Shown one piece after another: positions 9,001 to 64,000 of a stretch of DNA of 64,000 bases; positions within the stretch are counted from its first letter, which is position 1, and each line of letters opens with the position of its first letter. Under the pieces are notes generated by a model that was not told the origin of the DNA, did no database searches, and was given only the letters and a program-made list of their open reading frames with translations. A program made the position numbers and the translations under genes. Origin of the DNA: Heterodontus francisci. Its lineage: Eukaryota. The DNA lies in assembly GCF_036365525.1 (NCBI RefSeq), contig NC_090399.1:42502430-42566429 (forward strand), given 5' to 3'.

Positions 9001-9830
9001 CAACCCCACACAGAGAGACACATCAGGACATGAACCCCAAAACACCAACCCCACACAGAGAGACATCAGGATATGAACCCCAAAACACCAACCCCACGCA
9101 GAGACACATCAGGACATGAACCCCAAAACACCAACACGAGAGAGACATCAGGACATGAACCCCAAAACACCAACCCCACCAGAGAGACATCAGGATATGA
9201 ACCCCAAAACACCAACACCACTCGGAGACACATCAGGACATGAACCCCAAAACCCAACCCCACAGAAAGACATCTGGACATGAACCCCAAAACACCAACC
9301 CCACACAGAGAGACACATCAGGACATGAACCCCAAAACACCAACCCCACAGAAAGACATCAGGACGTGAACCCCAAAACACCAACACCTCACAGAGAGAC
9401 ATCAGGACATGAACCCCAAAACACAAACCCCACACAGAGAGAGACATCAGGACATGAACCCCAAAACACAAACCCCACACAGAGAGAGACATCAGGACAT
9501 GAACGCCAAAACACCAACACCTCACAGAGAGACATCAGGACATGAACCCCAAAACACAAACCCCACACAGAGAGAGACATCAGGACATGAACCCCAAAAC
9601 ACAAACCCCACACAGAGAGAGACATCAGGACATGAACCCCAAAACACCAACACCTCACAGAGAGACATCAGGACATGAACCCCAAAACACCAAACCCACA
9701 CATAGAGAAAGACATCAAGACATGAAACCCAAAACACCAACCCCACACACACACACAGATATCAGGACATGAACCCCAAAATACCAACCCCAGAGAGAGA
9801 CAGCAGTACATGAACCCCCAAAAAAAGAAC
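1..9830. repeat. Satellite array, ~39-45 bp units (core CATCAGGACATGAACCCCAAAACACCAAC plus a variable 10-16 bp tail), running off the window start
   Basis: About 200+ tandem copies directly visible. All ORFs in 65-9877 are translations of the repeat. Higher-order block repeats are present (ORF 65..274 recurs at 891..1100, 826 bp apart). Confidence 0.98.
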
Positions 9831-10199
9831 CAAACAGAGAGAAAGAGGCACTGATATCCCACAACCTCCCTTCCCAACCCCTGACAATGCTCTAAAAGCC
9901 TGTGATCTCCCAGATCTCACACTGAATTCCAATCAGGGACTCTGTGAACTCATGTCTCACCCGTTCTTCCTCCAGTCCCCCCACAATCTAACCCGATTTG
10001 TTACCTGGAACTTGCTGCACTCACCTTTCATTACATTAAAGGCGCTATATAAATATAAGTTGTTGTTGTAATCTGTGCGCCCTGCTCCTGTAGCACCATC
10101 TACTGTACGGTGAGGTCTCTGGAGCTCCTCAGAGCTCAACATTTGAGTGTGGACTGTTAACACTGTGTGAGGTGGGGGAGCTCCTGAATTTAACCCAGA

Positions 10200-13520: not shown

Positions 13521-13521
13521 G

Positions 13522-14445
13522 AGGCCCCAGTACCCAGTCTAGCACAGCCCCGATCACACCCCATTACTCACTGATCGAGGGTTAATGCCCCAGTACCCAG
13601 CCTGGCACTGTCCCTCTCACACCCATTACTCACTGACCGAAGGTTAATGCCCCAGTACCCAGCCTGGCACTGTCCCTCTCACACCCATTACTCACTGACC
13701 GAGGGTTAATGCCCCAGTACCCAGCCTGGCACTGTCCCTCTCACACCCATTACTCACTGACCGAGGGTTAATGCCCCAGTACCCAGCCTGGCACTGTCCC
13801 TTTCACACCCCATTACTCACTGACCGAGAGTTAATGGCCCAGTACCCAGTCTGGCACTGTCCCTCTCACAACCCATTACTCACTGACCGAGGGTTAATGG
13901 CCCAGTACCCAGTCTGGCACTGTCCCTCTCACACCCCATTACTCACTGACCGAGGGTTAATGCCCCAGTACCCAGTCTGGCACTGTCCCTCTCACAACCC
14001 ATTACTCACTGACCGAGGGTTAATGGCCCAGTACCCAGTCTGGCACTGTCCCTCTCACAACCCATTACTCACTGACCGAGGGTTAATGGCCCAGTACCCA
14101 GTCTGGCACTGTCCCTTTCACACCCCATTACTCACTGACCGAAGGTAAATGCCCCAGTACCCAGTCTAGCACTGTCCCTCTCACAACCCATTACTCACTG
14201 ATCGAGGGTTAATGCCCCAGTACCCAGTCTGGCACTGTCCCTCTCACACCCCATTACTCACTGACCGAGGATTAATGCCCCAGTACCCAGCCTGGCACTG
14301 TCCCTCTCACAACTCATTACTCCCTGATCGAGGGTTAATGCCCCAGTACCCAGTCTGGAACTGTCCCTCTCACACCCCATTACTCACTGACCGAGGATTA
14401 ATGCCCCAGTACCCAGTCTAGCACTGTCCCTCTCACACCCCATTA
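13522..14445. repeat. 63-bp minisatellite, left half
   Basis: Unit GAGGGTTAATGCCCCAGTACCCAGTCTGGCACTGTCCCTCTCACACCCCATTACTCACTGACC; 21-aa periodic ORFs. Confidence 0.97.
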
Positions 14446-17400
14446 AGAACATAAGAAATAGGAGCAGGAGTAGGCCATTCAGCCCCTCAAGCCTACCCTG
14501 CCAATCAATAAGATCATGGCTGATCGGCCCCAGACCTCAACTCCTCTTTCGTGCCAGCTCCTCTTAGCCCTCAACTCCCCAATATTTCAAAAATCTATCT
14601 ACCTCCTCTTTAAATACTTTCAGTGATCTAGCCTCCACAACTTTCTGGGCGAGAGAATTCCAGACATTCACTACCCTGAGAGAAGAAATTCCTTCGCATC
14701 TCAGTTTTAAATGAGTGTCCCCTTATTCTGTAACTATGTCCCCTAGTTTGAGATTCCCCCACTAGTGGAAACATCTTCTCAACATCTACCCTGTCAAGCC
14801 CCCTCAGTATCTCGTACCTTTCAATAAGATCACCCCTCATTCTTCCAAACTCTAATGAAAAAAGGCCTAACCTGTTTAGCCGTTCTTGATAAGTCAACCC
14901 CTTCATCCCAGGAATCAGTCTAGTGAATCTCTTTTGAACTGCCTCCAATGCCAGTATATCCTTTCTTAAATATGGGGACCAAAACTGTACGCAGTACTCC
15001 AGGTGCGACCTCACCAACACCCTGTACAGTTGTAACAAGATTTCCCTGTTTTTAAACTCTAACCCCCGAGCAATAAAGGCCAAAATTCCATTTGCCTTCT
15101 TAATTACTTGCTGCACCTGCATGCTAACTTTGTGTTTCATGCACAAGAACACCCAGATCCCTCTGTGCTGAACTTTATTGAAGTCTTTCTCCATTTAAAT
15201 AATAGTCTGCCTTTTGATCTCACACTTCCCCACATTAAACTCCATCTGTCAAGTTTTTGCCCATTCACTCAACCTATCTATATCCCCTTTCAGATTCCTT
15301 ATGTCCTCATCACAATGTGCCCTCCCACCTATTTTTGTATCAGCAGCAAATTTGGATACATTACACTCTGCTCCCTCCTCCATGTCATTAATATAAATAA
15401 ATAATTGAGTCCCCAAGCCTGATCCTTGTGGCACTCCACTAGTTATGTATTTCTAACCTGAAAAAGACCCATTAATCCCGAATCTGTCGTCTGTGAGTTA
15501 ACCAATCCTCAATCTATGCTGATACATTACCCACAATACCGTGAGCTCCTATCTTGTGCAATAATCTTTTATGTGGCACCTTATCAAATGCCTTCTGGAA
15601 ATCTAAATACACTCCATCTACTGGTTCCTGTTTATCAACTCTGCTTGTTATAACCTCAAAAGAATTCTCGCAAATTTGTCAAACATGATTTCCCTTTCAT
15701 AAAACCATGTTGACTCTGTTTGATTGCATTAAGCTTTTCTAAACATCCTGTTATTTCTTCCTTAATAATGGACTCCAGCATTTTCCCAATGACCGATGTT
15801 AAACTGACTGGCCTATAGTTTCTTGCTTTTTGTTTCCCTCCCTTCTTGAACAGGGGCATCACATTAGTGGTTTTCCAATCTGCTGGGACAATCCCGGAAT
15901 CCAGTGAGTTCCGGAATATTTCGACCAATGCCTCCATTATCTCTGCAGCCACTTCCTTTAAAACCCTTGGATGTCGGCCATCAGGTCCTAGTGACTTGTT
16001 TGCCTTTAGTCCCATTAGTTTGTCAAATACTTTGTCACTCGTGATAGAGACTGTTACAAGATCTTTCCTCCCATTAGCTCCTTGCTTATCTGATATCTGT
16101 GGGATGTTTATAGTGTCCTCCGCCGTGAAGACCGATGCAATATATTGGTTTAAATTATCTGCCATTTCCCTGTTCCCCGTTGTCAATTCTCCAGTCGCAT
16201 CCTCCAAGGGTCCCACGCTCACTTTAGCTACTCTCTTTTTTATATACCCATAGAAGCTCTTGCTGTTTGTTTTTATATTTCTTGCCAATTTACTTTCATA
16301 ATCAGTTGTCTCCTTCTTTATTAGCTTTTTAGTCATCCGCTGCTAGTTCCCAAAAAATTCCCAATCCTCTGGCCTACCATTAGTTTTTGCCGCTTTGTAT
16401 GCCTTAGTTTTTGATTGGATACTCTCCTTGACCGCCTTTGTTAACCACGGGTAGTTCTTCCTTCTCATCGAGTCCTGCTTTTTGACTGGGATAAATTTTT
16501 GCTGAGCATTATGAAATATCTGCTGAAATGTCTGCCACTGCTCATCCACTGACCTTCCCTTTGGACTATTTTCCCAGCCTGCTTGAGACAACTCTTTCTT
16601 CATACCTCCGTAATTGCCCTTGTTTAAGTTGAAGACACTGGTTTGTGACCCGAGTTGCTCGCCCTCAAACTGAATTTGAAATTCTACCATGTTGTGATTG
16701 CTACCCCCTCGAGGATCCTTAACTACCATATCTCTTATTAATCCTACCTCATTACACATTACTAGATCGAAAATAGCCTGTTCCCTGGTAGGTTCTGCAA
16801 TGGATTGTTCTAAGTAACAATCCCTGATGCACTCTACAAATTCGTCTTCCATGTTACCTCTGCCAATCAATATGCAGATTAAAATCACCCATGACAATTG
16901 TAGTGCCCTTCTTACATGCCTCCATTATTTCCTGATTTATATTTTGTCTGACAATGAGGCAACTCTTCGGGGGGCCTATAGACGACAGCCACCCGTGACC
17001 TCTTCCCCTTGCTATTCCTGATTTCAACCCAAACTGATTCCACATCACGATCTATTGCACCTATATCACTACTCACCACTGCACTGATACCTTACTTTAT
17101 TAACAAAGCTACCCCACCTCCTTTTCCTTTTTGCCTATTTTTCTGGAACACCCTTGAATATTGAGTTCCCAGTCTTTGTCACCCTGCAACCACGTCTCTG
17201 TAATAGCTATCAAATCATATTCATTTATTTCGATATGTGCCATCAACTCATCTATCTTGTTACAAATGCTGTGTGCATTCAGATAAAGAGCTTTAAGCTT
17301 TGACTTTTTACCATTATTACTCATTCTGGTTCTAATTTCTGCTAAACTCTTCTGCTTATATTTTCTGCCCCTTCCTGTCACACTTAGATTACCGTTCGCC

Positions 17401-17490
17401 TCTTCACTACCCTGGAACTCTGCTCTCTCGTTTCTTTCAGATTTTTTAAACTTCCCTTCAATTGAACCCTCCCCCCAACTAATTAGTTTA
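14446..17490 (-). mobile_element. CR1 LINE, near-complete ORF2 (APE endonuclease and RT) with frameshifts, inserted into the 63-bp minisatellite
   Basis: Motifs YLNAHSICNK..IAITETWL, VMGDFN, NYRPVSLTS..QHGFMKGKSCLTN, PQGS, KFAADTK, HLEYCVQFWSP. The 3' tail abuts CCCCATTA and the 5' end resumes with CTCACTGACC. Confidence 0.95.
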
Positions 17491-18562
17491 CTCACTGACC
17501 GAGGGTTAATGCCCCAGTACCCAGTCTGGCACTGTCCCTCTCACACCCCATTACTCACTGACCGAGGGTTAATGCCCCAGTACCCAGTTTGGCACTGTCT
17601 CTCTCACACGCCATTACTCACTGACTGAGGGTTAATGCCCCAATACCCAGTCTGGCACTGTCCCTCTCACAACCCATTACTCACTGACTGAGGGTTAATG
17701 CCCCAATACCCAGTCTGGCACTGCCCCTCTCACACCCCATTACTCACTGACCGAGGGTTAATGCCCCAGTACCCAGTCTGGCACTGTCCCTCTCACACCC
17801 CATTACTCACTGACCGAGGGTTAATGCCCCAATACCCAGTCTGGCACTGCCCCTCTCACACCCCATTACTCACTGACTGAGGGTTAATGCCCCAGTACCC
17901 AGTCTGGCACTGTCCCTCTCACACCCCATTACTCACTGACTGAGGGTTAATGCCCCAGTACCCAGTCTGGCACTGTCCCTCTCACACCCCATTACTCACT
18001 GACCGAGGGTTAATGCCCCAGTACCCAGTTTGGCACTGTCTCTCTCACAACCCATTACTCACTGACTGAGGGTTAATGCCCCAATACCCAGTCTGGCACT
18101 GTCCCTCTCACACCCCATTACTCACTGACCGAGGGTTAATGCCCCAATACCCAGTCTGGCACTGTCCCTCTCACACCCCATTACTCACTGACTGAGGGTT
18201 AATGCCCCAATACCCAGTCTGGCACTGTCCCTCTCACAACCCATTACTCACTGACTGAGGGTTAATGCCCCAATACCCAGTCTGGCACTGCCCCTCTCAC
18301 ACCCCATTACTCACTGACTGAGGGTTAATGCCCCAGTACCCAGTCTGGCACTGTCCCTCTCACACCCCATTACTCACTGACCGAGGGTTAATGCCCCAAT
18401 ACCCAGTCTGGCACTGCCCCTCTCACACCCCATTACTCACTGACTGAGGGTTAATGCCCCAGTACCCAGTCTGGCACTGTCCCTCTCACACCCCATTACT
18501 CACTGAGGGTTAATGCCCCAATACCCAGTTTGGCACTGTCCCTCTCACACTCCATTACTCAC
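17491..18562. repeat. 63-bp minisatellite, right half
   Basis: Same unit as 13522-14445. Confidence 0.97.
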
Positions 18563-18949
18563 CTGCAGAGACCCCTCCACACAGAAGGACCAGCACTATC
18601 AGTCCAATCATTGTTGCTTCCCTCGACAAGCTGAAAGGAGCAGTTTGTGGGAAATCCTTTTCCAAAAAACCTTTGCTTCTCAGTCTGTGAGCTGTGTCCT
18701 GTACTGATGATATTAAACTCTGTTCCAGTTTCCTCAGACTGATTGGTTTGACATAAGTTAATGTCCAATCAGAATTAAAACAAACTATGAATCATCAGGC
18801 TCCAGGCGGAATAGTTTCAGACAGTTTGATTCGGGGATCCCCAACAAACTTAACAAATATCGTGAACTATCCAAATCAGAGAAATACTGATAGTTACATC
18901 ACCAGTTGTCAGGGAGGATAAACGTTTGCTACAAAAAGTGAGAAGATTA

Positions 18950-21429: not shown

Positions 21430-21985
21430 CTTCTCTTTTATCCTCCCCTCCCATCTCACTGTGCTCTCACTTTCTGAGCTGCTCTTTTATCCTCCTCACC
21501 AGTCTCACTGTGCTCTCACTCTCCGAGCTGCTCTTTTATCCTCCTCACCAGTCTCACTGCGCTCTCACTCTCCGAGCTGCTTTTCTATCCTCCCCGCCAG
21601 TCTCACCGTGCTCTCACTCTCCAAACTGCTCTATTATCCGCCTCCCGCCGGTCTCACTGTGCTCTCGCTCACCGAGCTCCTCTTTTATCCTCCTCGCCGG
21701 TCTCACTGTGCTCTCACTCTCCAGGGCTGCTCTTTTATCCTCCCCGCCAGTCTCAGTGTGCTCTCACTCTCCAGGGCTGCTGTTTTATCCTCCCCGCCAG
21801 TCTCAGTGTGCTCTCACTCTCCAGGGCTGCTCTTTTATCCTCCCCGCCAGTCTCAGTGTGCTCTCACTCTCCAGGGCTGCTCTTTTATCCTCCCCGCCAG
21901 TCTCAGTGTGCTCTCACTCTCTGAGCTGCTCTTTTATCCTCCCCGCCAGTCTCACTCTCCGAGCTGCTCTTTTATCCTCCCCGCT
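21430..21985. repeat. 50-bp pyrimidine-rich minisatellite
   Basis: Unit GCTGCTCTTTTATCCTCCCCGCCAGTCTCAGTGTGCTCTCACTCTCCAGG; 50-bp period (21721/21771). Confidence 0.95.
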
Positions 21986-23344: not shown

Positions 23345-23758
23345 CTGGGGTGAGAGTCACTGGGGTGTGATGTTGGGGTGTGATGTTGGGGTGTGATGTT
23401 GGGGTGTAACTGCTGGGGTGAGTCTCGCTGGGGTGAGACTCGCTGGGGTGAGACTCGCTGGGGTGAGAGTCGCTGGGGTGAGAGTCGCCGGGGTGAGACA
23501 CGCTGCGGTGTGATGTTGGGGTGTGACTCGCTGGGGTGTGACTCGCTGGGGTGAGAGTCGCTGGGGTGAGAGTCGCTGGGGTGAGAGTCGCTGGGGTGAG
23601 ACACGCTGGGGTGTGATGTTGGGGTGTGACTCGCTGGGGTGAGTCTCGCTGGGGTGAGAGTCGCTGGGGTGAGTCTCGCTGGGGTGAGTCTCGCTGGGGT
23701 GAGAGTCGCTGGGGTGTGACTCGCTGGGGTGAGTCTCGCTGGGGTGTGACCCTCTGGG
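23345..23758. repeat. G-rich ~13-15 bp minisatellite (CGCTGGGGTGAGAGT and variants)
   Basis: Direct tandem repeats, preceded by a G-rich low-complexity tract at 23040-23280. Confidence 0.95.
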
Positions 23759-24513
23759 GCATGAGGGTGAATACAGAATCTGCTTTTGGGAGATGATTCT
23801 GGGCCTTGCTGGTACAGTTGTGGCTCTCACTCTGAGTGTCACTGACTTGCTCAATGTGGGGGTTTTATTAGAAGTGAAAGTGGAGGAAACAGTCTCTTCT
23901 CGGAAGAAGCTGGACTGCAGCCAGTGACCGGGCTCTGCACTGTGACTGGGAATGTGTAACAGAATCGTGCTGTCCTCACTGGCAGGATTCAGACCCTGAT
24001 ACTCAGCTAGCTGAAGCGATGTTTCTCTTTAAAACAACAGCAACTAAACACTTCAAATAATTCACAGGCTGCTTGGCCTTGGAAGAAGTCCTGGGGACAT
24101 GAACCATGCTGTATAGACGAGAATTTGATCAACAACTTTCCAAAAAGTTAGTTCAGGGACTTTCCAACAGTGATAAAGATAAGGTAGAGGGCAGCAAGCA
24201 AACAACTATATGGGTGGGCCCAGGGGGAGCAACCACGGAGTGGAACGGGATAGTGTACAGGGTCAAAGTGTACAGTCCGTAGTTTGACCACAGTATTTCA
24301 GGGCAGTGAAATCCCTGAAAGAACTTTCTTCACAGTCTCATTCCCAGCCTTTACCCCATTCAGCCATCACCCCATTTCCCCCACTCAGTAATAAACACTA
24401 ATTGTGGAAATAAACCACAAACCTGGTAAAATACTGTACACACAGAAATATACCGTACATCCAATAATAAACACAACACCCAAAAGTATACAGTGCACTC
24501 AGTAATAAACCAT

Positions 24514-25063
24514 CTTCTCCTTCTTCTTCTTCTTTGGCCTCCTTGTGTTGGGAGACAATGGGTAAGCGCCTGGAGGTGGTCAGTGGTTTGTGGAGCAGCG
24601 CCTGGAGTGGCTATAAAGGCCAATTCTAGAGTGACAGACTCTTCCACAGGTGCTGCAGATAAAATTGGTTGACGGGGCTGTTACACAGTTGGTTCTCTCC
24701 TTGCGCTTCTGTCTTTTTTCCTGCCAACTGCTAAGTCTCTTCGACTCGTCACACTTTAGCCCCGCCTTTATGGCTGCCCGCCAGCTCTGGCGATCTCAAA
24801 CAACTGACTCCCACGACTTGTGATCAATGTCACAGGACTTCATGTCGCGTTTGCAGATGTCTTTAAAGCGGAGACATGGACGGCCGGTGGGTCTGATACC
24901 AGTGGCGAGCTCGCTGTACGATGTGTCCTTGGGTATTCTGCCATCTTCCATGCGGCTCACATGGCCAAGCCATCTCAAGCGCCGCTGACTCAGTAGTGTG
25001 TATACGCTGGGGATGTTGGCCGTCTCGAGGACTTCTGTGTTGGAGATACGGTCCTGCCACCTG
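24514..25063 (-). mobile_element. 5'-truncated young RTE LINE with a 9-bp TSD
   Basis: Highly similar to the 3' end of the intact RTE at 30847-31390. (GAA)n tail. ATAAACCAT at 24505-24513 and 25064-25072. Confidence 0.92.
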
Positions 25064-30846: not shown

Positions 30847-33800
30847 TTCTTCTTTTGGGCCTCCTTATCTCGAGAGACAATGGATACGCGCCTGGAGGTG
30901 GTCAGTGGTTTGTGAAGCAGCGCCTGGAGTGGCTATAAAGGCCAATTCTGGAGTGACAGGCTCTTCCACAGGTGCTGCAGAGAAATTTGTTTGTTGGGGC
31001 TGTTGCACAGTTGGCTCTCCCCTTGCGCCTCTGTCTTTTTTCCTGCCAACTACTAAGTCTCTTCGACTCGCCACAATTTAGCCCTGTCTTTATGGCTGCC
31101 CGCCAGCTCTGGCGAATGCTGGCAACTGACTCCCACGACTTGTGATCAATGTCACACGATTTCATGTCGCGTTTGCAGACGTCTTTATAACGGAGACATG
31201 GACGGCCGGTGGGTCTGATACCAGTGGCGAGCTCGCTGTACAATGTGTCTTTGGGGATCCTGCCATCTTCCATGCGGCTCACATGGCCAAGCCATCTCAA
31301 GCGCCGCTGACTCAGTAGTGTGTATAAGCTGGGGATGTTGGCCGCTTCAAGGACTTCTGTGTTGGAGATATAGTCCTGCCACCTGATGCCAAGTATTCTC
31401 CGAAGGCAGCGAAGATGGAATGAATTGAGACGTCGCTCTTGGCTGGCATACGTTGTCCAGGCCTCGCTGCCGTAGAGCAAGGTACTGAGGACACAGGCCT
31501 GATACACTCGGACTTTTGTGTTCCGTGTCAGTGCGCCATTTTCCCACACTCTCTTGGCCAGTCTGGACATAGCAGTGGAAGCCTTACCCATGCGCTTGTT
31601 GATTTCTGCATCTAGAGACAGGTTACTGGTGATAGTTGAGCCTAGGTAGGTGAACTCTTGAACCACTTCCAGAGCGTGGTCGCCAATATTGATGGATGGA
31701 GCATTTCTGACATCCTGCCCCATGATGTTCGTTTTCTTGAGGCTGATGGTTAGGCCAAATTCATTGCAGGCAGACGCAAACCTGTCGATGAGACTCTGCA
31801 GGCATTCTTCAGTGTGAGATGTTAAAGCAGCATCGTCAGCAAAGAGGAGTTCTCTGATGAGGACTTTCCGTACTTTGGACTTCGCTCTTAGACGGGCAAG
31901 GTTGAACAACCTGCCCCCTGATCTTGTGTGGAGGAAAATTCCTTCTTCAGAGGATTTGAACGCATGTGAAAGCAGCAGGGAGAAGAAAATCCCAAAAAGT
32001 GTGGGTGCGAGAACACAGCCCTGTTTCACACCACTCAGGATAGGAAAGGGCTCTGATGAGGAGCCACCATGTTGAATTGTGCCTTTCATATTGTCATGGA
32101 ATGAGGTGATGATACTTAGTAGCTTTGGTGGACATCCGATCTTTTCTAGTAGTCTGAAGAGACCACGTCTGCTGACGAGGTCAAAGGCTTTGGTGAGATC
32201 AATGAAAGCAATGTAGAGGGGCATCTGTTGTTCACGGCATTTCTCCTGTATCTGACGAAGGGAGAACAGCATGTCAATAGTCGATCTCTCTGCACGAAAG
32301 CCACACTGTGCCTCAGGGTAGACGCGCTCGGCCAGCTTCTGGAGCCTGTTCAGAGCGACTCGAGCAAAGACTTTCCCCACTATGCTGAGCAGGGAGATTC
32401 CACGGTAGTTGTTGCAGTCACCGCGGTCACCTTTGTTTTTATAGAGGGTGATGATGTTGGCATCGCGCATGTCCTGGGGTACTGCTCCCTCATCCCAGCA
32501 CAGGCATAGCAGTTCATGTAATGCTGAGAGTATAGCAGGCTTGGCACTCTTGATTATTTCAGGGGTAATGCTGTCCTTCCCAGGGGCTTTTCCGCTGGCT
32601 AGGGAATCAATGGCATCACTGAGTTCCGATTTGGTTGGCTGTATGTCCAGCTCATCCATGACTGGTAGAGGCTGGGCTGCATTGAGGGCAGTCTCAGTGA
32701 CAGCATTCTCCCTGGAGTACAGTTCTAGGTAGTGCTCAACCCAGCGGTCCATCTGTTTGCATTGGTCAGTGATTATGTCCCCCGATTTAGATTTGAGGGG
32801 GGTGATCTTCTTGATGGTTGGCCCAAGAGCTCTCTTCATGCCATCATACATTCCTCTGATGTTTCCGGTGTCTGAGGCCAGCTGAATATGACTGCATAGG
32901 TGTTGCCAGTAGTCGTTTGCGCAACGCCTAGCTGTTCTTTGTGCAGTACTTCTGGCTGCTTTAAGTGCTGCGGATGTTAAATCGCTGGGGGCTTTCTTGT
33001 AGTTCAAAAGTGCAATGCGCTTAGCGGCTATGACAGGTTCCAGCTCTTCATTATGAGATTGAAACCAGTCTGCATTTCTCTTCGCACTTTTGCCGTAGGT
33101 GGTCAAAGCTGACTCATAGATGGCGTCTCTGATGTGGGCCCACTTGGTCTCAGCATCCCCTGTGGGAGTGTTTGGAAGGGCTGTTACAAGTGAATTTAGA
33201 AATTTTTGTAACAGCTGTGGGTGAGAAATTCTGCTCGTGTTGATGCGCGGGTGGCCCTTCTGCTTGGAATGATGCAACTTCTTTGGTCTGAGTCTAACCT
33301 TGCTGCACACCAGGGAGTGGTCGGTGTCGCAGTCCGCACTGTGGAAGCTGCGTGTGATTTGAACACTGTTTAAGGAGGCTCGCCTTGTGACAATGAGGTC
33401 TAGCTGGTGCCAACGACGTGATCTTGGGTGCCTCCATGAAACCTGGTGACAGGGTTTAGTGTGAAAGAACGAGTTGGTGATGCAGAGGTTATGATAGGTA
33501 CACAACTCAAGCAGTCTCTGCCCGTTCTCATTCATCCTTCCAACGCCATAGCGCCCAAGGCAGGAGGGCCATGAGTCATGGTCGGCCCCAACCCTGGCAT
33601 TAAAGTCCCCCAGCAGGAATAGGTGTTCGGTGTTGGGGATGCTGCTAATGATGTTATGGAGTTGTTCATAGAACTGGTCTTTAGCTTCAGGTGCGGAACA
33701 GAGTGTTGGAGCATAGATGCTGAGTAGGTGTACTGGACCAGAGGTGGTGAGCAGTCGGATGGACAGTATGCGTTCCGAGCCATTTGAGGGAGGCTCTATC

Positions 33801-34620
33801 ATGCTGAGCAAGGAGTTTCTGATGGCGAAGCCCACTCCATGCTGTCTTGGTTCTTCAGGATCCCTGCCCTGCCAGAAGAAGGTGTAGTCTTGCTCTGCTA
33901 GAGAGCCACTCGCGGGGAGGCGAGTCTCCTGAAGTGCTGCAATGTCCACATTGAGTCTACTGAGCTCGTTGTTAATGATGGCGGTCTTCCGAGAATCGTT
34001 GATTTGTGTAAGGTCTTCCGACAGGCCAGGACACATAGTTCTGACGTTCCAGCTTGCAAAACGAAGGGCTGGTACCTTCTTTCCTTTTTTCATGTTGTTT
34101 GGTGCGGTGTATCAGTCCACCTTTCGGGCAATGACCCTGAGCTCCAAGCACCCATTGAAGCAGGCAGACTGTGGCGGGACAGAACCTTATTGACCGGGGG
34201 CTGCCCGGTTTGAGGCGGGCGGTAGCTGTCCAGTGAGGTGCAATGACCTCTCCCACCGACAAAGGCAACCCGTGGCGCCCAGTTTCTACGCCAATTTATC
34301 TGGACTTATAACCCGTAACTGCTGCCTTCCGTGTTGTTTCAGTCGCTGTGAGGCAACTATGGAGTGACCTCTCCATGGCGCATGCCTGGGCAAATTTATG
34401 GAGGTTGAGAGTTGCCCAGTCGTCAAAACCCCCCTCTCGGCCTTTCTGGTGGGGTCCAAAGGAGTGCAGGACACGACGTTTGGCACCAGTATGGCTGCAG
34501 GAACTGCCGGAAACATGCCAAAGGTGACACATGACCGCCTACGGGGTTCCGCTCCGGATTTTCTGTTAGGGTTTACTCCCTTAGCCTTGGTCTCTCCCGA
34601 GACGCCCACAAGGCAGTGGG
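30847..34620 (-). mobile_element. Full-length RTE-clade LINE with intact ORF
   Basis: (GAA)-type 3' tail, one 1063-aa ORF and ~500 bp of 5' UTR. The 5' boundary is uncertain. Confidence 0.93.
30902..34093 (-). CDS. RTE LINE polyprotein: APE endonuclease, reverse transcriptase and C-terminal zinc finger (1063 aa)
   Basis: SWNVRT, LQETR, LLGDFNA, DCDTDH, NYRGISLL, FIDLTKAFD, GVKQGCVLAP, LLFADD, YLGS, CSTCGRACHSRIGLYSH; no stops. Confidence 0.96.
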   Translation of the reverse strand: MKKGKKVPALRFASWNVRTMCPGLSEDLTQINDSRKTAIINNELSRLNVDIAALQETRLPASGSLAEQDYTFFWQGRDPEEPRQHGVGFAIRNSLLSMIEPPSNGSERILSIRLLTTSGPVHLLSIYAPTLCSAPEAKDQFYEQLHNIISSIPNTEHLFLLGDFNARVGADHDSWPSCLGRYGVGRMNENGQRLLELCTYHNLCITNSFFHTKPCHQVSWRHPRSRRWHQLDLIVTRRASLNSVQITRSFHSADCDTDHSLVCSKVRLRPKKLHHSKQKGHPRINTSRISHPQLLQKFLNSLVTALPNTPTGDAETKWAHIRDAIYESALTTYGKSAKRNADWFQSHNEELEPVIAAKRIALLNYKKAPSDLTSAALKAARSTAQRTARRCANDYWQHLCSHIQLASDTGNIRGMYDGMKRALGPTIKKITPLKSKSGDIITDQCKQMDRWVEHYLELYSRENAVTETALNAAQPLPVMDELDIQPTKSELSDAIDSLASGKAPGKDSITPEIIKSAKPAILSALHELLCLCWDEGAVPQDMRDANIITLYKNKGDRGDCNNYRGISLLSIVGKVFARVALNRLQKLAERVYPEAQCGFRAERSTIDMLFSLRQIQEKCREQQMPLYIAFIDLTKAFDLVSRRGLFRLLEKIGCPPKLLSIITSFHDNMKGTIQHGGSSSEPFPILSGVKQGCVLAPTLFGIFFSLLLSHAFKSSEEGIFLHTRSGGRLFNLARLRAKSKVRKVLIRELLFADDAALTSHTEECLQSLIDRFASACNEFGLTISLKKTNIMGQDVRNAPSINIGDHALEVVQEFTYLGSTITSNLSLDAEINKRMGKASTAMSRLAKRVWENGALTRNTKVRVYQACVLSTLLYGSEAWTTYASQERRLNSFHLRCLRRILGIRWQDYISNTEVLEAANIPSLYTLLSQRRLRWLGHVSRMEDGRIPKDTLYSELATGIRPTGRPCLRYKDVCKRDMKSCDIDHKSWESVASIRQSWRAAIKTGLNCGESKRLSSWQEKRQRRKGRANCATAPTNKFLCSTCGRACHSRIGLYSHSRRCFTNH

Positions 34621-36140: not shown

Positions 36141-36228
36141 AAGTAAAAAAAACAAAAATTAGGAAAGCACAGAGGAACTCTGAAATTAAATTATCAAAGA
36201 ACAAAACAAAATAGTAAAATATTGTAAA

Positions 36229-36663
36229 ATACTGACCCTCCGACAGTGCAGCGCTCCCTCACTACTGACCCTCCGACAGTGCAGCGCTCCCTCACTACTG
36301 ACCCTCCGACAGTGCAGCGCTCCCTCACTACTGACCCTACGACAGTGCTGCTCTCCCTCAGTACTGACCCTCCAACAGTGCAGCGCTCTCTCAATACTGA
36401 CCCTCCGACAGTGGAACGCTCCCTCAGTACTGACCCTCCTACAGTGCAGCACTCCATCAGTAGTGACCCTCTGACAGTGCTGCTCTCCCTCAGTACTGAC
36501 CCTCCGACAGTGCAGCGCTCCCTCAGTACTGACCCTCCGACAGTGCAGCGCTCCCTCAGTACTGCCCCTCCGACAGTGCAGCGCTCCCTCGGTACTGATC
36601 CTCCGACAATGCAGCTCTTCGTCAGTACTGACCCTCTGACAGTGCAGCACTCCCTCAGTACTG
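36229..36663. repeat. 33-bp minisatellite (CAGTACTGACCCTCCGACAGTGCAGCGCTCCCT), probably DeuSINE-derived
   Basis: 11-aa periodic ORFs. The unit matches CAGTGCAGCGCTCCCTCAGT in the SINE-like relic near 56880. Confidence 0.9.
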
Positions 36664-36665
36664 CC

Positions 36666-37055
36666 TGTAATGAGGTCTTTTTATGTTGTCTGATGCAAAT
36701 TTAATGAGATGCGTGGAGTCCAGGTTGTTGAAGAGCTCCACTAGACGCTATATAATGGAATCTAAATACTGCAGATGCTGGAATCTGAAATAGGAAACAA
36801 ATTGCTGGAAATACTTAGCAGGTCTGGTAGCATCTGTGGAGAGAGGTGCTGAGTTAACGTTTCAGGTCTGTGACCTTTCATCAGCTTATTACTGCTAACT
36901 TATTATACAGTACAGAACTCACTATTTACAGAACTTGCCTCTACTTGTTACAGCAGCAGTGAGACGAGCATGTAGTCACATGACTACATCCTGGCACTTA
37001 GCTCATGAGCATACCAAGATCTTAAAAGGACACTCTTAAAGACAATCACACAGCA
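36666..37055 (-). repeat. 3' LTR of the myc-bearing element, interrupted by a Penelope terminal fragment at ~36755-36885
   Basis: Starts with TG immediately after the PPT and ends ..CATTACA next to the minisatellite. Confidence 0.7.
36852..36885 (-). ncRNA. Minimal hammerhead ribozyme core (Penelope pseudo-LTR)
   Basis: Reverse complement CTGATGA-A-AGGTC aca GACCT-GAAA-CGTT-AACT; canonical core, with the 5' arm of stem I truncated. Confidence 0.65.
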
Positions 37056-37199
37056 TCCCCTTCTTTCCAAAGTCTCGTGTGCTAGAATGAAAAAAAAAGA
37101 AACACTAGATAGCATCAAAATTAGTATATAGAAGGATCGAGAAAAATTTACAAGTATACAGCCGCACAAGTCTATGTTTCGTTTTGGTGATTTGACAAC

Positions 37200-37695
37200 T
37201 CTTGCTCGGAGAATGTGTGTCTCGGGTGTTGAGTTTCTTAATGAAGTTTCTCCATCTCTGCATTCAGTTTCTGATGCTCTGCCTTCAGCCTGCTGACGTA
37301 CTCTGTTGCTTTATTCAAGATCACCACTTTTGAGGCCTTGTCAATCTTGGAGAGTTCCGGCACCTCATCTTGAAGATCTAACAGACAATGCTTCAACTCA
37401 TTCCTCCTCTGCCTCTTGAGGGCATTGTGTGTCCTTCACCTCTCCTCATCCTCTGTGTCTGAAGCTTCAGGCTTAAGGTTGAGGAGCAGTTGAGGGAGGA
37501 GTACTTGGTCTTATGGAGATACCTGCCCGCTCTGGCTTGTTGTGGTACTGTAAGTTCTCTAGAGAGCAAAAGTGAAGGCACGGCATAGTTGTGCTATTGC
37601 TGGGTTTCCAGACTGCACCATTTGATGCTGGTCAGTCTGTGAGCGGGTTCCGGTCCTTGGAGATTTCCCCTTGGTCTCTTCTGCTGTAATGGTTA
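37200..37695 (-). pseudogene. myc: Transduced Myc-family C-terminal fragment (Myc box IV and bHLH-LZ), decayed
   Basis: Manual translation gives IKWCSLETQQ*HNYAVPS (HNY at 37585-37593). After a frameshift it reads [76 protein letters not shown]. Compare c-Myc [56 protein letters not shown]. Confidence 0.93.
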
Positions 37696-37699
37696 CCTT

Positions 37700-38017
37700 A
37701 GTGACCTCATGGATGGTTATAATGTTGAGGTCCTTATACATTGGTAGTCCAACCTCTGCTTGCCTGCTCGTGTTAACTAGGTAGAACATTTGTGGTTCCA
37801 TGCTGACTTGGCATAGCTGCATTGCATTGTTAGTGTGATACTGCAAGGGAATGGATGACCTGTTGTATGCAGATAACCTGGCAGTTGTCAGTTGTATCAT
37901 TGATTTCCAGTGACTCCAGAACATATCTTTCATGATTCGGACTGGTAGTATATTTGCACGAGCTTCGGTGTCAATCTTGACCCAGAGTGTATGTTTGTCA
38001 GCTTTCTTTGGGCACAT
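37700..38017 (-). pseudogene. Retroelement aspartic protease (decayed)
   Basis: VKIDTEARANILP is the DTG(A) motif with G to E. LSAYN..IP and FYLV..GLP follow. Confidence 0.8.
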
Positions 38018-38259
38018 GATGTTAAATGGAGCAAAAGTTGTTTGACTTCATCAACATGATGTGTTAGGTTCACAATGTGGAACGCTTTCTCATCTTCTGT
38101 TTGAGAACGTCTTCTCTCAGAGTCTGGTCTCAGGTTTGTTTTGCTGTGGACTTCGTGTATCAGCTTGCATTTACTCAAGACTTTGGCATGTTCCTTGCTG
38201 CTGTTGCCCTGTTTTCTGTTTGCTTGTGTTCTACCGTGACTTCTGGCTGTGTCTCTGGA

Positions 38260-38959
38260 GCCAGAATTATTGCATAGGTGTACCCAGTGTCCTTTTGCTA
38301 CACGCCTTGCACAGGTCTCAAAATGCAGGACAACTTCACCATGAATAGGACCAACCACACTTACCACACAGCTTGTTTGCTCTTTTCAACCTGGTTATTG
38401 GTCTGATACTGTTGGCTACAGCTAGTGCTTGCAGGTCCTGTTGTTCAGCTACAATGGCTTCATATTTCCTGCCATCTTGCAGCAGTGCATCAATTCTGTG
38501 ACCTTTCTTTTTCCCGATGAGGTCTTTCTGAAATGCTTCAATGGGTATTCATATGAGCATCAGCTCCATTATTCGGTCAGACAGCTCAGTTTCTGAGAAG
38601 TCGCATTTATTGCCCTTACTACGGCATCTACTAATGAACTGGTCTATTGATTCCTGTGGCTGTTGCCTGTAGGATATCAATTCCAGGTGGTGAATTTGAA
38701 AATTCACTCTTAATCGGAGTTGATCATCCAGCACCATCCATATCTTTGCGGGATATTTCTGGTCCTCTTCAGGTAAGCCAGAGTTATTGATTCTGTGTAA
38801 TCCATCAGTTCTGACTGTTAGAAGCATTTTTACAGCCTGTTTTTCTGGTACTACAATTATTTGGTCTTTAAAGCCTAATGACATTCCTTTTTGGAACAGT
38901 TTGAATTCTGATAGGATACCCAGGTCTTTCCAGTTTGTGCTGCAAAATTTGGTATCCAT
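38260..38959 (-). pseudogene. Gypsy-type gag with CCHC knuckle (decayed)
   Basis: ORF 38549..38959 plus a downstream Cys/His cluster. Confidence 0.8.
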
Positions 38960-39004
38960 AGTTCTACTGCTGTTTTGCTTTAAGACAAGCTTCTATGATT
39001 CTGT

Positions 39005-39429
39005 CAGCAGGTCTGGCAGCATCTGTGGAAAGAGAAGCAGAGTTAACGTTTCGGGTCAGTGACCCTTCTTCGGAACTGACAAATATTAGAAAAGTTGTTC
39101 AATATTCAGTGTATTTACACCTAATCTGTACTAATGCTTTGTCTTTCAACACACCATTAACATATTGTTTGCCTTTGCTCCGTGACCTTTTGGTCAGCTA
39201 TGTGGCCTGGTCCAATCTGCACCTTCTCCTTTGTTATCTCTTGCCCCACCCCCACCTCACTTGCTTATAATCTGTGACTTTTCTAATATTTGTCAGTTCC
39301 GAAGAAGGGTCACTGACCCGAAACGTTAACACTGCTTCTCTTTCCACAGATGCTGCCAGACCTGCTGAGTGATTCCAGCATTTCTTGTTTTTGTTTCAGA
39401 TTTCCAGCATCCGCAGTATTTTGCTTTTA
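39005..39429. mobile_element. Young Penelope terminal insertion with an inverted repeat and ~14-bp TSD
   Basis: 39005-39095 is the reverse complement of ~39277-39368. TTCTAYGATTCTGT occurs at 38991-39004 and 39430-39443. Hammerhead motifs lie at 39041-39080 (-) and 39294-39334 (+). Confidence 0.85.
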
Positions 39430-41156
39430 TTCTACGATTCTGTACTGCTTTCCTTTAAAAAAAAGTCTTGGCTGCTTTGATTGACAGGAGCAGGCGTTTA
39501 GCAGTGCTTGTCTGTTTATGTAGCTTCTGGCACTCTATTCTGTCTGTTGAAGAACATTTGTTGCTTTTAAATGAACTTTTTGATTTATTGCAGAAAGTGG
39601 GATTGAAGGTGAACCTGAAAAAGACTCAGTTGGTGCAGAGTGAAGTCACCTCCTTGAGGGTAAAAATCTCTGCTCCAGGACTCAGTCCGGATCAGTATAA
39701 GGTCAAAGTTATTCCGAGACTCCCATTGCTTGTATCGATGACGGCATTGCCATCCTTTTTGGGATTGGTAGGATATCGGAGAAGTTTTATCCTGAACTTT
39801 GCAGATTTGGCCGAGCCACTGTATGAATTATTGAAAGGTGATGAGGAAGATATTCGGCCAGCATGGGGGTGATAGTCACACAGAATCAGTGAATGTCTGA
39901 AAACAGGCAACAATGCAGACTACTGCCCTTATCACCCCAGACTCCAGCAGGCCTTTCCATCTGGAAGTTGGTTCAAACCCTTCCAGCCTGACAGCAGTTT
40001 TAAGTCAGCAACAGCAGATAGACGCACGTTGTGCCCTGTATTTTGAGAGAGGCAGGAAATATGTACTCAGCCTGTGAACGTCACCTTCTGGGCAGTCAAT
40101 CACTTTACTTACATCACCGGACCACAGAAAGTGATTTTATATTCATCGCACATGCTCCTTAATCTTCTATTAAAACCAAGTGATACGAAGGTGTCTTCTC
40201 AATGGATCATCAAATAGACACTTGAGTTACTGCAGCGAGACTTGGACATCACCCCCACATGAACAACTCTTTTTGCCCTGATGCTTGTGTACGAGCGAAG
40301 TCCACACCAGTGTCTATTACCTGTGTTGGAGATGGAATTAAACCCGGTAAAAGCCTGCACTATTCTGGAGGCCCGAAATGTGTACTTGTACGGCTCGTCC
40401 TATTACACTGACGGCCACCCCAAAACCGGGTGTGTCATAGTTGACATGGACACTCCTGATTGGACAATGGGAGTCCAAGTTCCTGTCCATTCATCTCAAC
40501 AATCAGAGCTGATAGCTGTCATCCTCACCGTCCACTATACAGCATCAAAAGCAACTAATATTGGGTCTGATAGTGGTTACGTCTGCAATGCAGTTATGGT
40601 CTTACCCCTGTACCATAAAAATGATTGTTGTTTATCTGATGGTAAATCTTTATTACATTCTGGTCTCCTCTGTAAGCTATGGGAAGTGCTCCGGGAACGA
40701 GTCACCCTCTGTCATTAGGAAAGGTAACAGCCCATCGGAAATAGTTGGGACAAGGGATCAAATTTGGGAAGATGTGGTAAATCAAGGCAAGAGAGAAAGG
40801 GATTAATATGGGAAATGATAATCTGACTATGACAGGAAAGATTCATCACCAAACACCCAGGGTAACAATACAGCCGACTGACTTGCTCCAGAATCCGCAG
40901 AGAATGGATTCCCAGTCCCAGGGTAGGTGATGGATAAATCCAGATCCCAGGCACCTGTTGTAGCTGTTGTTACGAAAATAAAAACCATCAATTTGACAGA
41001 ACTCCAAACTTTGTTCACTCCATTTGCTCAGGTTATAGAATGGCACAAACAGGGGTGTCCAGTATCACAGCCCCCCTGGTGGGCAAACTCCACAGTGATT
41101 CAACACCATGATAAAGAAAGCCCCTCCCTATTAATGATTAAAATAAGGTTGATTCA

Positions 41157-42210
41157 TTGGTAGTTTACATTCCTCCCCACCTTAAAGAGGAAATGTTAGT
41201 ACTCTTTCATTCTCACCCAATGGCTGGACATTACTCAGCCGATACTACATCACAAAAGCTAACTTGCGCCTGTCGGTGGCCAGAAATGGAGCAGCATGTA
41301 GAGCAATATGTCAATAGATGTAGACCATGTTTGCAAGTTAATCCTCCTTCCTGTTCGAATCGCGCCCTACTCCGGTCACAACCTCCTCCTAATGGCCCGT
41401 GGACACACTTACAGATTGATTTTATTGGTCCCTTTACAAAGTCTCAGGGAAACTATGAGTTTGGTCTTGTGGTGGTGGACCAATTTACAAAATGGATGGA
41501 GGCCTTCCCAACCAGGAATAATAAAGTACATACGGCCACACAATTCCTTTTGCGTGAGGTGTTCTGTCGGTAGGGAATACCGAGACAGGTGGTTAGCGAT
41601 CAGGGTCCACACTTTACAGGGGACATTTTTACTGCCCTGCAGGACATGCTCCAAATAAGGCAGAAATTGCACATTACACACCACCCGCAATCATCAGGGA
41701 TTGTGGAAAGGAGTAATCGTACTTTGAAAACCAGAACACCCCACTCAATTGGCTGACATGAAGCCTCTATGTTTGATGACAATATGTTCCACCCGTCATA
41801 AGGCAATAGGGATAAGTCCATATGAGGCTATGACTGGGAGACAAATGCAGATACCGGGACAATAACTCTGGGGAATAGAACGTCATTAAAACTACAGCCA
41901 TGTCGTCAGAAGTGGTTGCAGACAATGATAGACCACGTGGAATAAGTGAACAGACTGGTGGCAGAAAACCTGGGAAGGTCACAAAATCAAGTTAAACAAT
42001 GTTTTGACGAGAAAGTCAAACCATTTGAATATGGGGTTGCAGATCAAGTAAAATAACAACATTTCTCCCCTAAAAAAAACACCTTTTGATGTGAAATGGG
42101 TCAGTCCCCAGACCATAACTGATAAATTAAACCCAGCTGTAAACTATTGAATGTGCCACACGGTCCAAAAAAAGAACCAAAGTTAAGGTGATTCCATATT
42201 AATCAGATGG
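41157..42210 (+). pseudogene. Integrase (HHCC and DDE), with stops
   Basis: HSHPMAGH..CRPC; QIDFIGP; SDQG; GIVER. Confidence 0.9.
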
Positions 42211-42399: not shown

Positions 42400-44750
42400 C
42401 CTCAGATTTTTGGTGGACATAAAGTTAATGAGTCACAATGACTCTTACAAGACATACGAGGAGGATCTCCCAGTTTGGATAAGAAATAATAAGAGAGATA
42501 GTGTAATGACAGCAAACATAACAGGCTATGGTGCTCTCCTGGGAAGACTTTCTATGAGAAATAAAAGAGGGATATGGAGTGTGTATTCTGTGCAAGGTAA
42601 AAGACAGGGGAGGCCTGAATGTGTGGAACTTTCTGGGAAAGAATAATGGGAACTGGGAGCAAGTAAAAGAAACAAACCAAGGCCCAGTGGAATCAGAGAG
42701 TGAAGAAGACATCCAATTGAGTTGGCTTCGATGGTGGAAGAGACAGGAAGGGCAATATTCTTGTCTTAGGTCTAATAATGGAAATTGGGATGACAGACCT
42801 CTTTCAGTAACTTTTCGGTGATGGGCCTTGGGGGGTAATAGGCCGAGTCAAGATAAGATTTGAGGATGCAATAACCGGATGTACAAATACCGACAGCTAC
42901 CTCTACAGTGTTACACTCATACCAATGAGAAGGTCGATAGCTCAGATGCCTGGGATCAGGAACAAGTGGGGCAATGTCCTCAATTAGAGGCTCAAACTAG
43001 GGTGTCAACTGACGTGGCAGACAAAAGACACCTACACGAGATACTTCATATAAACACCTTTATTGATACTTCAATCACTTATTAAGCTACTCGTTATTTC
43101 CCTTGTTAAACTATTTGTTACTTGTTACAATAAATCACAAGACTCACGGCTTGGAATTAAATACTACCCGTTGTGAGGTGAGGTGATCAGTCTCCCTCCA
43201 GTGGTGGGTTCTCTTCACTGAATCCTGGACTCGGGGTTCCCTTCCGCGATGGTGGTTCCTGCAGATCTTCGCTTCGGAGGTTCCTAACCTCCCCTTTTTA
43301 TCCAGTTGCTTCCAGCATCGAGAATGTTCTTAGTCACGTACACCCATGACTTGGAGCCATCCGTTTGCTTAGTGCTAGTTGCAAAGCAAAACAAAATACA
43401 TCTGCTGGCCTTGTTCTCCCTATCTGTCCTTGTCTAGCAAACTTCGTAACTGCAGCAGTCTCATATTCTCATAGTCTCATTCAGAAAACAAAATACATCT
43501 TATCACACACTGCCTATTCAACAGGCTGGGCTTGTTAAGCTGCAACTGCAGCTGTTTCACAGTCCTTGTCCTTGTGTAAAGTTGGCTATTTTTCCCTTCA
43601 TGCTTTGCAGATGCTTGGCTGTTAGCCATCCAGGTACAATCCAGAAATAGCCTTGTAATCATCCCTACCCACGAAGCAGTATATCACCAGGTAATACCAG
43701 AAGTGGTCCCTGTCATTTTAAACTTAACCAATTTAGTATTGCTCGAATGGTGTCCCAACATAACAATACAGTTAACTCAAGGGATGATACAGCAGGTTTT
43801 CGACCAGTATTGGGAAAAGGTTGCCTTTGTCAGGAATATCCTGTTATCAGGACAATACAGAATTATGTAAAATTAGGAGTTTGATTGAAGTTTGCCCAGT
43901 CAAGCACGAATGCTACAAGGTTGGGAAGCAGAAGTTATTGGGACTAGTAATACAGATCCCCAGTCTTATGAATTGACCCATGCCTAATCCTCTGTTTAGA
44001 GTAGAAAACATAGGGGTTGTGAGGGAAAGTGTCATTCGTCGATTCCTGAAAGCACCCCAATGGTCGATCCGGCTAAAAGAACTAACTTGGATAGAACCAA
44101 ACCTACAGGGATTCAGAACAAGTAAGGATGCTCTCATTTGCCCAGATGATTTATTCAAGAGACACATGTGGATTCAATGAGTAGGAACTGAACAGTATAA
44201 TGGAGGTTACAGGACCATCAGATGTGAGAACTAGAATGACCAATGTACGAGAAGGGAATTACTGTTTTACCACCTTAGAAGACTATCATCATCACGGGTC
44301 ACTGAAATGTCCAATCAAACCTGGGCCCAACAGTCCGACACCAACCAAAACCACAGGGATAGGGGGAAAAAACCTCCTCGCCATTGCTAAGCCTGACCAA
44401 CAGGTTTTACAAGTAAAAGATGACTTGAACGTAAACATAGAGGATTATGTCACTAAATGTGGATATGACATCCCTGAACTACCTATGGTCTTAACAACAT
44501 TAATAAGTCAAATGAACATCTCCCAATGCCATTATTACACACAAGAGCAAAGAAATAAAGCTATAGCTAAGGAAGTTCCGGGGTAGAGGATTCAATACAT
44601 TGATGGGAAATAGGGTTCAACGTGGAACTTCCCCCCTGAATTAGAATAATTTCACAAATATTGGTTATAACTCAGTTATTGGTGCTAATATGCTTACCAC
44701 TCTATACTTGCTACTTGAAGCACCTGGTGTGTCAGACAAGATGAGAATTA
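42400..44750 (+). pseudogene. env-like glycoprotein remnant
   Basis: Lies between IN and the LTR. Cys-containing segments (FRVENIG..LICP..GNYCFT) and a C-terminal hydrophobic TM at ~44650-44715. Confidence 0.6.
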
Positions 44751-63287: not shown

Positions 63288-64000
63288 CACCTGATGCCAA
63301 GGATTCTCCGGAGGCAGCGAAGATGGAATGAATTGAGACGTCGCTCTTGGCTGACATACGTTGTCCAGGCCTCGCCGCCGTAGAGCAAGTACTGAGGACA
63401 CAGGCTTGATACACGCGGACTTTTGTGTTCTGTGTCCGTGTGCCATTTTCCCACACTCTCTCTTGGCCAGTCTGGACATAGCAGTGGAAGCCTGTCCCAT
63501 GCGCTTGTGGCAGGACCGTATCTCCAACACAGAAGTCCTAGAGGCAGCCAACATCCCCAGCTTATAGACCCTACTGAGCCAGCGGCGCTTGAGATGGCTT
63601 GGCCATGTGAGCCGTGTGGAAGATGGCAGGATCCCCAAGGACACATTGTACAGCGAGCTCGCCACTGGTATCAGACCCACCGGCCGTCCATGTCTCCGCT
63701 TTAAAGACGTCTGCAAACGCGACATGAAGTCCTGTGACATTGATCACAATTCGTGGGAGTCAGTTGCCAGTGATCGCCAGAGCTGACGGGCAGCCATAAA
63801 GGCGGGGCTAAAGTGTGGCGAGTCGAAGAGACTTAGCAGTTGGCAGGAAAAAAGACAGAAGCGCAACGGGAGAGCCAACTGCGAAACAGTCCTGACAACC
63901 AATTTTATCTGCAGCACCTGTGGAAGAGCCTGTCACTCTAGAATTGGCCTTTATAGCCACTCCAGGCACTGCTCCACAAACCACTGACCACCTCCAGGTG
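63288..64000. mobile_element. RTE LINE 3' end with an inverted 5' segment (minus 63288-63507, plus 63508 to window end)
   Basis: The minus part encodes KRMGQAS..LRRILGIRW. The plus part begins WQDRISNTEV and runs to ..CSTNH*. Confidence 0.9.

Follow-up and report, generated by a model that had tools for sequence, protein, structure and literature searches.

A 64,000-nucleotide stretch of the genome of the shark Heterodontus francisci (NC_090399.1, positions 42,502,430 to 42,566,429; hereafter the window, in whose numbering coordinates are given) carries, on its minus strand at 36666-39548, a decayed long terminal repeat (LTR) retrotransposon joined to a piece of a myc gene. This copy almost certainly belongs to a non-autonomous, Mag-like Gypsy family in which pol was replaced, by the route of capture described below, by spliced host mych mRNA. 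The captured piece has remained in frame with gag and protease, and its sequence inclines us, with some reserve, to regard it as a passenger that may have been disarmed as a Myc protein.

The Copy in the Window

Read along the minus strand, the copy consists of a leader remnant, gag, two decayed zinc knuckles, protease, myc, an integrase-tail remnant, a polypurine tract (PPT) and one LTR. Its parts, and the fragment that abuts it, are the following (RT, reverse transcriptase; bHLH-LZ, basic region with helix-loop-helix and leucine zipper).

36666..37055, minus strand: 3' LTR with TG...CA ends (about 260 bp in relatives), matching both LTRs of dispersed copies
about 36739-36885: short-repeat insert of about 147 bp that splits this LTR
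37056..37068, minus strand: PPT; the same tract precedes the LTR in a pol-bearing relative (L064/L068)
37069..37210, minus strand: integrase-tail remnant and 3' untranslated stretch, matching the integrase-tail end of a form A copy (L059)
37211..37674, minus strand: captured mych fragment of 464 bp (host residues about 205-357), with box IV, nuclear signal and bHLH-LZ
37667..37674, minus strand: in-frame form C 5' junction, where the protease-RT linker and mych exon 3 share a short microhomology
37675..38047, minus strand: decayed aspartic protease and linker, by alignment to the relative Gag-Pol P0273
38270..38959, minus strand: decayed gag with two zinc knuckles and in-frame stops, by alignment to P0273
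39005..39430, no strand: later short-repeat insertion with inverted arms, not in the other copies on the same contig (C29)
39430..39548, minus strand: leader remnant of the element, up to the cut point, without 5' LTR or primer site
39549..41756, plus strand: unrelated pol fragment (RT end, RNase H and integrase, from Pfam), abutting the cut and not of the partner family

A Pfam search of the window frames returned no gag, knuckle or protease family, nor did it for P0135, and these parts were therefore assigned from the alignment of the window frames with relatives. Against the single-frame Gag-Pol protein P0273, the window gag showed 43% identity over 214 amino acids (E 1e-59) and the protease 36% over 112 amino acids (E 2e-22). 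These alignments agree with the first-pass annotation of the window, made from the letters alone, which had placed gag, a CCHC knuckle and protease on the minus strand, although the knuckle is double and decayed. The PPT and 3' LTR that it saw shortly beyond myc were located as listed, and no RT, RNase H or integrase core was found between protease and myc, as it had stated. The copy breaks off at 39548 and so lacks a 5' LTR; the unrelated plus-strand pol starts at this point (its RVT_1 match begins at 39549).

The myc piece matched the Pfam HLH family (E 4.8e-12) and was 85.6% identical in DNA to the host mych exon; for the myc piece of another copy (L019), Myc was the best solved relative (E 1.5e-23). 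The piece was thus correctly recognized, but the full bHLH-LZ attributed to it is broken, with one stop inside the basic region and a loss of frame before the zipper end. With three stops and two frameshifts in myc and further breaks in gag and protease, the copy is dead. That the piece is intronless is uninformative in the window, since it lies entirely within the last coding exon; a spliced origin was nevertheless found in longer members of the family. Neither a duplication of its own nor poly-A was seen at either of its junctions, in line, as to the duplication, with what had been noted.

A Dispersed Family with Four Nested Forms

A 441-bp query gave 2,769 first-look candidates, of which the best 40 were scored, on 11 contigs. 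All 20 of these hits outside C29 were fetched, together with 6 of the 118 matches of a Myc_N search (26 loci), and protease-side sequence was joined to myc in each of the 20 loci outside C29. Junctions were then counted with 25-mers allowing up to two mismatches (reversed-pattern control, 0 each). As pattern degeneracy differs between junctions and decayed copies escape, the counts are lower bounds and give rough ratios: 142 matches for the 5' junction of form A, 402 for form B, 66 for form C, which is that of the window (over 28 contigs, with 13 matches on C29), and 1,019 for form D, the shortest form being the commonest. Together, these four forms, nested at their 5' side, account for at least 1,629 copies with myc. 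The short 3' junction, from myc to the integrase tail, had 1,458 matches; 1,216 were counted for the sequence that runs on into pol where form A switches. The first-pass annotation had suggested that a family might exist, and had named a lone copy, or flanks other than gag, protease and LTR, as fatal to its reading; the element is dispersed over many contigs, and its flanks are gag, protease and LTR.

The window copy taken alone could also be explained by a processed pseudogene that landed in an existing element and was spread by segmental duplication. It belongs to a block present in duplicate on its own contig, which holds 20 of the 40 best hits, and one copy about 393 kb away (L001) is 100% identical to the 441-bp query, which is either a very recent duplication or an assembly duplicate. 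However, of the 66 form C junctions, 53 are spread over 27 other contigs, pol is replaced rather than interrupted, the junctions carry neither poly-A nor a duplication of their own, and flanks and target duplications differ between copies. We consider this explanation refuted, with next to no probability left to it.

In 14 of the 26 loci there were paired LTRs of about 260 bp with TG...CA ends, separated in the common form by about 3.2 kb. Among these 14, the 5-bp target duplication matched at 5/5 positions in four loci, at 4/5 in one and at 3/5 in one, so that the paired LTRs and part of the duplications for which the first-pass annotation had proposed to look were indeed found. The primer site lies directly 3' of the 5' LTR and fits the 3' end of a tRNA-Leu from the same genome in all but about one base; an Rfam tRNA search named no anticodons. 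The family has a double zinc knuckle, and its relatives P0273 and P0149 show the pol order protease, RT, RNase H, integrase. Paired LTRs, PPT, primer site and this pol order support the proposed placement as a Gypsy-type, non-autonomous element. Separately, a tandem array with a period of about 3,050 bp (L065, on C34, 18.73-19.00 Mb) contained more than 80 matches to the tRNA-Leu 3' end.

Two pol-bearing relatives from the same genome (L063 and L064) are 83-87% identical to the element over the shared part and map to RT and to RT-integrase, in that order. L064 has the PPT in common with the element, the first 120 bp or so of its LTR are 78-84% identical and its leader 66-76%. Both are broken, and where an LTR of L063 would be expected none was found. 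When full-length partners were sought among longer proteins with the protease-RT frame of L061, there were 0 hits at E 1e-15 among 118 candidates; a HMMER library search did return relatives. Of the earlier proposal that a partner mobilises the element in trans, a pol-bearing partner family in the same genome is supported, with broken copies, while trans copying itself is suggested by the dispersal, the target duplications and the shared ends.

Other derivatives exist. Positions 1-1501 of L064 hold a myc-less variant, with an in-frame deletion that joins early RT to the region before integrase. The protein P0283 is a fifth in-frame variant, namely form A with a further deletion within the RT remnant, although as an annotated gene model it is biased to open frames. 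Among named proteins, Gag-protease-Mych fusions were found in this species only (P0007, P0122, P0282, P0283 and P0284). Ten duplicated copies on C29 (L009-L018) represent a much shorter derivative in which gag and protease are gone, the layout being an LTR, about 360 bp and then myc from the box IV region onward.

Donor Gene and Route of Capture

In the Myc_N search (119 of 1,624 candidates scored), three host myc loci stood out, on C5, C3 and C16; no L-myc-like host locus was evident among the 119 scored. The copies shared 83-92% DNA identity with the last exon at the C16 locus, whereas local identity with the C5 exon was 66-77% and short stretches of the C3 exon gave 69-82%. NCBI gives the name mych of Heterodontus francisci to P0002, with which the C16 exon shows 100% identity. 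The mych paralog, suspected earlier from two motifs, is therefore the donor.

In forms C and D the myc piece lies inside a single mych exon. In the long copies (L050, L057-L062), the end of exon 2 is joined to the start of exon 3 in 7/7 cases, at the GT-AG splice sites of the host, and the host intron of about 1.7 kb is absent; transduction of a host myc is thus substantiated. Compared with L063 and L064, the pol sequence of form A breaks off about 45 codons into RT and resumes in the integrase tail. Microhomology was present at the A, B, C, D and 3' junctions, without poly-A or a separate duplication. Since the spliced junction is retained and every junction shows microhomology, the sequences point to template switching as the mechanism of capture. 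Also, some form A 5' junctions lie about 680 bp from the short 3' junction. Such copies are intermediates, and the order was therefore A, 3'-shortened A, B, then C and D.

The following route would account for these observations. A single-ORF (open reading frame) Gypsy retrotransposon would package spliced mych mRNA; its RT would switch to this mRNA just past the RT start and then back into the integrase tail, both switches falling at short in-frame microhomologies. The product would keep LTRs, primer site, gag and protease and would be copied in trans by the pol-bearing family, and further microhomology deletions would yield the shorter forms: 3'-shortened A, B, C and D from A.

Reading Frame and Fate of the Captured Myc

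The protease-to-myc distances were 420, 282/288, 66 and 42 nt. All four 5' junctions (A-D) are in frame with gag-protease, as are 26 of the 30 measured copies, the other four being single cases (two loci had no anchor). The deletion in the myc-less L064 is also in frame, so an open frame, rather than Myc, may be what the rule is about. The frame would probably stay open because Gag-protease translation, or the stability of the RNA, needs a long frame.

The longest form starts at host residue 121 or so, and the box I-like (residue 42) and box II-like (residue 100) motifs, which we take from familiar motifs to be the Myc boxes of host Mych, are missing from every form seen. The role of box II is treated in PMC7226237.

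Codons were compared over 28 loci, namely 20 dispersed copies, 6 long ones, the window copy and L028. Differences from the host that are private to one copy (206 amino-acid-changing and 76 silent) are decay. Common differences, defined as present in 14 or more copies, were split according to whether both form A loci share them. Those shared, which fall on the host side or the stem, comprised 1 changing and 9 silent; those not shared comprised 10 changing and 3 silent (8 to 2 outside CpG sites). The 10:3 ratio of this element class differs from the 1:9 of the host-side class (p 0.003) and not from private decay (p 1). Among variants shared by four or more copies, the share at third positions was 30/54 in gag (p 0.002), 36/72 in the linker-protease (p 0.016), 9/24 in myc (p 1) and 8/21 in the leader. 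By this measure gag-protease shows purifying selection, and the shared myc changes look neutral.

Several of these changes fall on working residues. A His-Glu-Arg triad reads the E-box (PMC10437117). The Glu was replaced by Lys in 21 of 28 loci and in all five annotated models, at a site that is not a CpG in the host, and was retained in 2 of the 28 loci and in 0/5 models; the His, still present in form A, has given way in 17/28 loci to Arg or its CpG product, Cys. The likely nuclear signal, PxKR, follows box IV; its first lysine, a residue with a key role in this signal, became Gln in 25 of the 26 B-D loci. At the corresponding place after box IV, c-Myc has a strong nuclear signal (PMC7226237). 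All three changes arose in the element lineage. As the E-box Glu and His and the signal Lys were replaced in turn, it is likely that Myc activity was not kept and would have been selected against.

These results bear on the v-myc-like activity that the first-pass annotation implied, according to which the fusion would have driven growth of the germ cells that carried it, like gag-myc in MC29. The layout is that of a defective gag-myc virus with a helper (PMC13431497), and form A retains box IIIb, box IV and the nuclear signal, with the E-box triad in one of two loci. Nevertheless, the start at residue 121 leaves all forms seen without the box I-like and box II-like motifs, the myc part shows no purifying selection in the element lineage, no env was seen between myc and LTR in the copies read, and the successful forms lost their DNA-reading residues, by which an equivalent of v-myc is largely refuted for forms B-D. 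Judged by its sequence, the element has the layout of a gag-myc virus and fails two defining tests of v-myc, the transactivation boxes and the E-box triad. We consider such a role very improbable.

A wholly neutral cargo deserves more weight, even if we hold it to be unlikely. The myc piece would then be filler, its open frames would be due to chance or RNA stability and the hits on key residues would be coincidental. This would suit the element-lineage ratio of changing to silent differences, equal to that of private decay, the third-position test, in which myc behaves as the non-coding leader does, and the fall in myc length from form to form. It is less compatible with the place of the changes: both common amino-acid changes of the basic region are at base-reading residues, and two of the three triad residues are among about 10 changes in 153 codons, with p 0.011, a value that rests on two changes, or p 0.0008 with the signal lysine, which was added after the data had been seen.

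A co-opted module appears more doubtful still. Here a piece released from the Gag-protease-Mych polyprotein would bind Max without being able to read DNA (a dominant negative), or zipper and basic patch would serve in particle assembly, in either case aiding spread. Every form seen has the whole bHLH-LZ and the deletions trim its N-terminal side only, the common differences in the HLH are 1 changing to 4 silent, and myc-bearing junctions were counted more often than pol-continuing ones. However, third positions are not in excess in myc, some of the silent HLH differences are host-side changes, the 25-residue zipper has 2 common amino-acid changes, and retention of the 3' part may merely reflect its position beside the PPT. 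In its boldest version, which we likewise think improbable, the retrotransposon would have domesticated the C-terminal half of Myc, selecting the Max-binding zipper and removing DNA reading and nuclear import, to give an antagonist of the Myc network; if so, this antagonist would have helped myc-bearing forms to outnumber their helpers.

We thus lean towards an in-frame but disarmed passenger, and several observations count against parts of this account. Eight of the 14 two-LTR loci have only 0-2/5 target-site matches, the ends being eroded in many, and no unbroken pol-bearing copy was seen. The chance that four junctions are in frame, at one in three each, is 1.2%, which is too low because in-frame microhomology between two coding sequences is commoner than one in three, and 4 of the 6 long copies were selected for long open frames. 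One of the 10 common changing differences is a stop, which reflects repeated decay and not a change in the lineage, since it lies at a CpG hot spot; the occurrence of 9 of the 10 at residues invariant in four shark orthologues is a weak result (p 0.077). The third-position contrast between myc and gag-protease is not significant (9/24 against 66/126, p 0.27), and the gag-protease variants may stem from recombination with pol-bearing partners. Finally, the 38-residue HLH has only one common amino-acid change, which is compatible with a dimer surface that was kept.

Comparison with Known Systems

No earlier description of such a system was found in the literature searched, which leaves out most subscription papers as well as Repbase and Dfam, where an entry may exist; within this scope, the statement of the first-pass annotation that none was known in cartilaginous fish stands. 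PMC13297096 and PMC2323570 gave nothing further on it. The mechanism, LTR-mediated gene capture, is known. What is new, as far as searched, is the scale, the presence of myc as cargo in a Gypsy element without env, and the step-by-step loss of the working residues of Myc.

The closest process is LTR-mediated retroposition in metazoans (Tan et al., 2016; PMC5131818), where likewise a partial mRNA replaces internal ORFs with microhomology at the switch points, without poly-A or a duplication of its own, both LTRs are retained and further non-autonomous rounds follow. Those retrocopies are young loci, with 18 sites for nine retrocopies, whereas the shark element counts 1,629 copies or more, its subfamilies are nested and in frame, and its cargo comes from the myc family.

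The avian gag-myc retroviruses, MC29 and its relatives (PMC13431497), resemble the element in being defective, in carrying myc in frame with the gag side in place of pol and in needing a helper. In contrast, the shark element is an env-less germ-line Gypsy element, took its cargo from mych, kept protease before myc, has no transactivation boxes and lost its DNA-reading residues. With regard to the growth-related host mRNA that they multiply, the crocodilian endogenous retroviruses CrocERV29 (KIT ligand) and CrocERV31 (nectin3) are comparable ancient germ-line LTR elements (PMC4299795), but they are true retroviruses, with nine intact KIT-ligand frames and purifying selection, while the shark element has far more copies and no sign that its cargo function was retained.

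As for the carrier, v-myc retains Myc boxes I and II and is borne by retroviruses of the MC29 kind, and a double zinc knuckle is a mark of the Mag lineage. Mag elements of Ty3/Gypsy are further marked by a tRNA-Leu/Ser primer, a 5-bp duplication and a short LTR (PMC3286476); the shark element shares the tRNA-Leu primer site, 5-bp target duplication and short LTRs, and its relatives the single gag-pol frame. It differs from Mag in being non-autonomous, with host sequence in place of pol, and its Mag-like placement comes from these marks.

Age, Spread and Transcripts

All copies seen are old, with LTR pairs about 12% apart, and have decayed. The divergence within LTR pairs had a median of 0.126 over 15 pairs (of which one is not an element and several are truncated) and ranged from 0.095 to 0.142 in the five loci with good target duplications. 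No age in years is given, since the rate of the epaulette shark, 7e-10 per generation (PMC10587355), leads to tens of millions of generations, too old at face value. A tree of 31 myc pieces was star-like, with end branches of 0.067 and 2 of 28 inner branches well supported; it left forms A, B and D unresolved and placed the host weakly beside form A. The flanks of one locus (L031) are repeats.

The element-derived proteins showed 79-82% identity to the Mych of this species and 66-76% to that of four other sharks. The higher identity to the own Mych indicates that capture probably took place after the split from those four lineages. In two other organisms, contigs with at least 80% likeness bridged the 3' junction of myc and element (X6 record 22 and X10 record 8, the latter by 32 bases). 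Contigs from presumed RNA runs bridged both junctions (X5 for the 5' one, X6 and X7 for the 3' one), although transcription, strand and level cannot be read from them; read depth over myc includes host mych.

Significance

The gag-myc arrangement of acute tumour viruses can also arise in a retrotransposon lacking env, which can multiply it more than a thousandfold in the germ line of a vertebrate. Its nested subfamilies document naturally what becomes of a proto-oncogene-family cargo whose carrier has to go through healthy germ cells: the cargo was trimmed and lost DNA-reading and import residues, the opposite of v-myc. More than 1,000 copies would allow a codon-model test of disarming by selection against drift. 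Also, five public "myc-like" or "N-myc-like" gene models of Heterodontus francisci are copies of the element, which calls for caution in annotation.

Neighbouring Features

The plus-strand pol at 39549-41756 is a decayed part of another LTR element, back to back with the cut end of the myc element. It showed merely 27-36% identity to P0273 and P0149 and hence is not of the partner family. Frames beyond it up to 44583, including 42864-44583, matched no Pfam family. On the other side, a 33-bp satellite array (36186-36665) adjoins the LTR of the element. Further arrays occur at 1-10000 (unit about 39-45 bp, AT skew near 0.77), 13500-14550 (63 bp), 17350-18600 (63 bp), 21430-21970 (49 bp) and 23366-23806 (15 bp). 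The minus strand at 30902-34111 carries a LINE (long interspersed nuclear element) with an unbroken frame of 1,069 amino acids comprising endonuclease and RT, and LINE-like 3' pieces, 92-94% similar, lie near 24569-25060 and 63507-63998.

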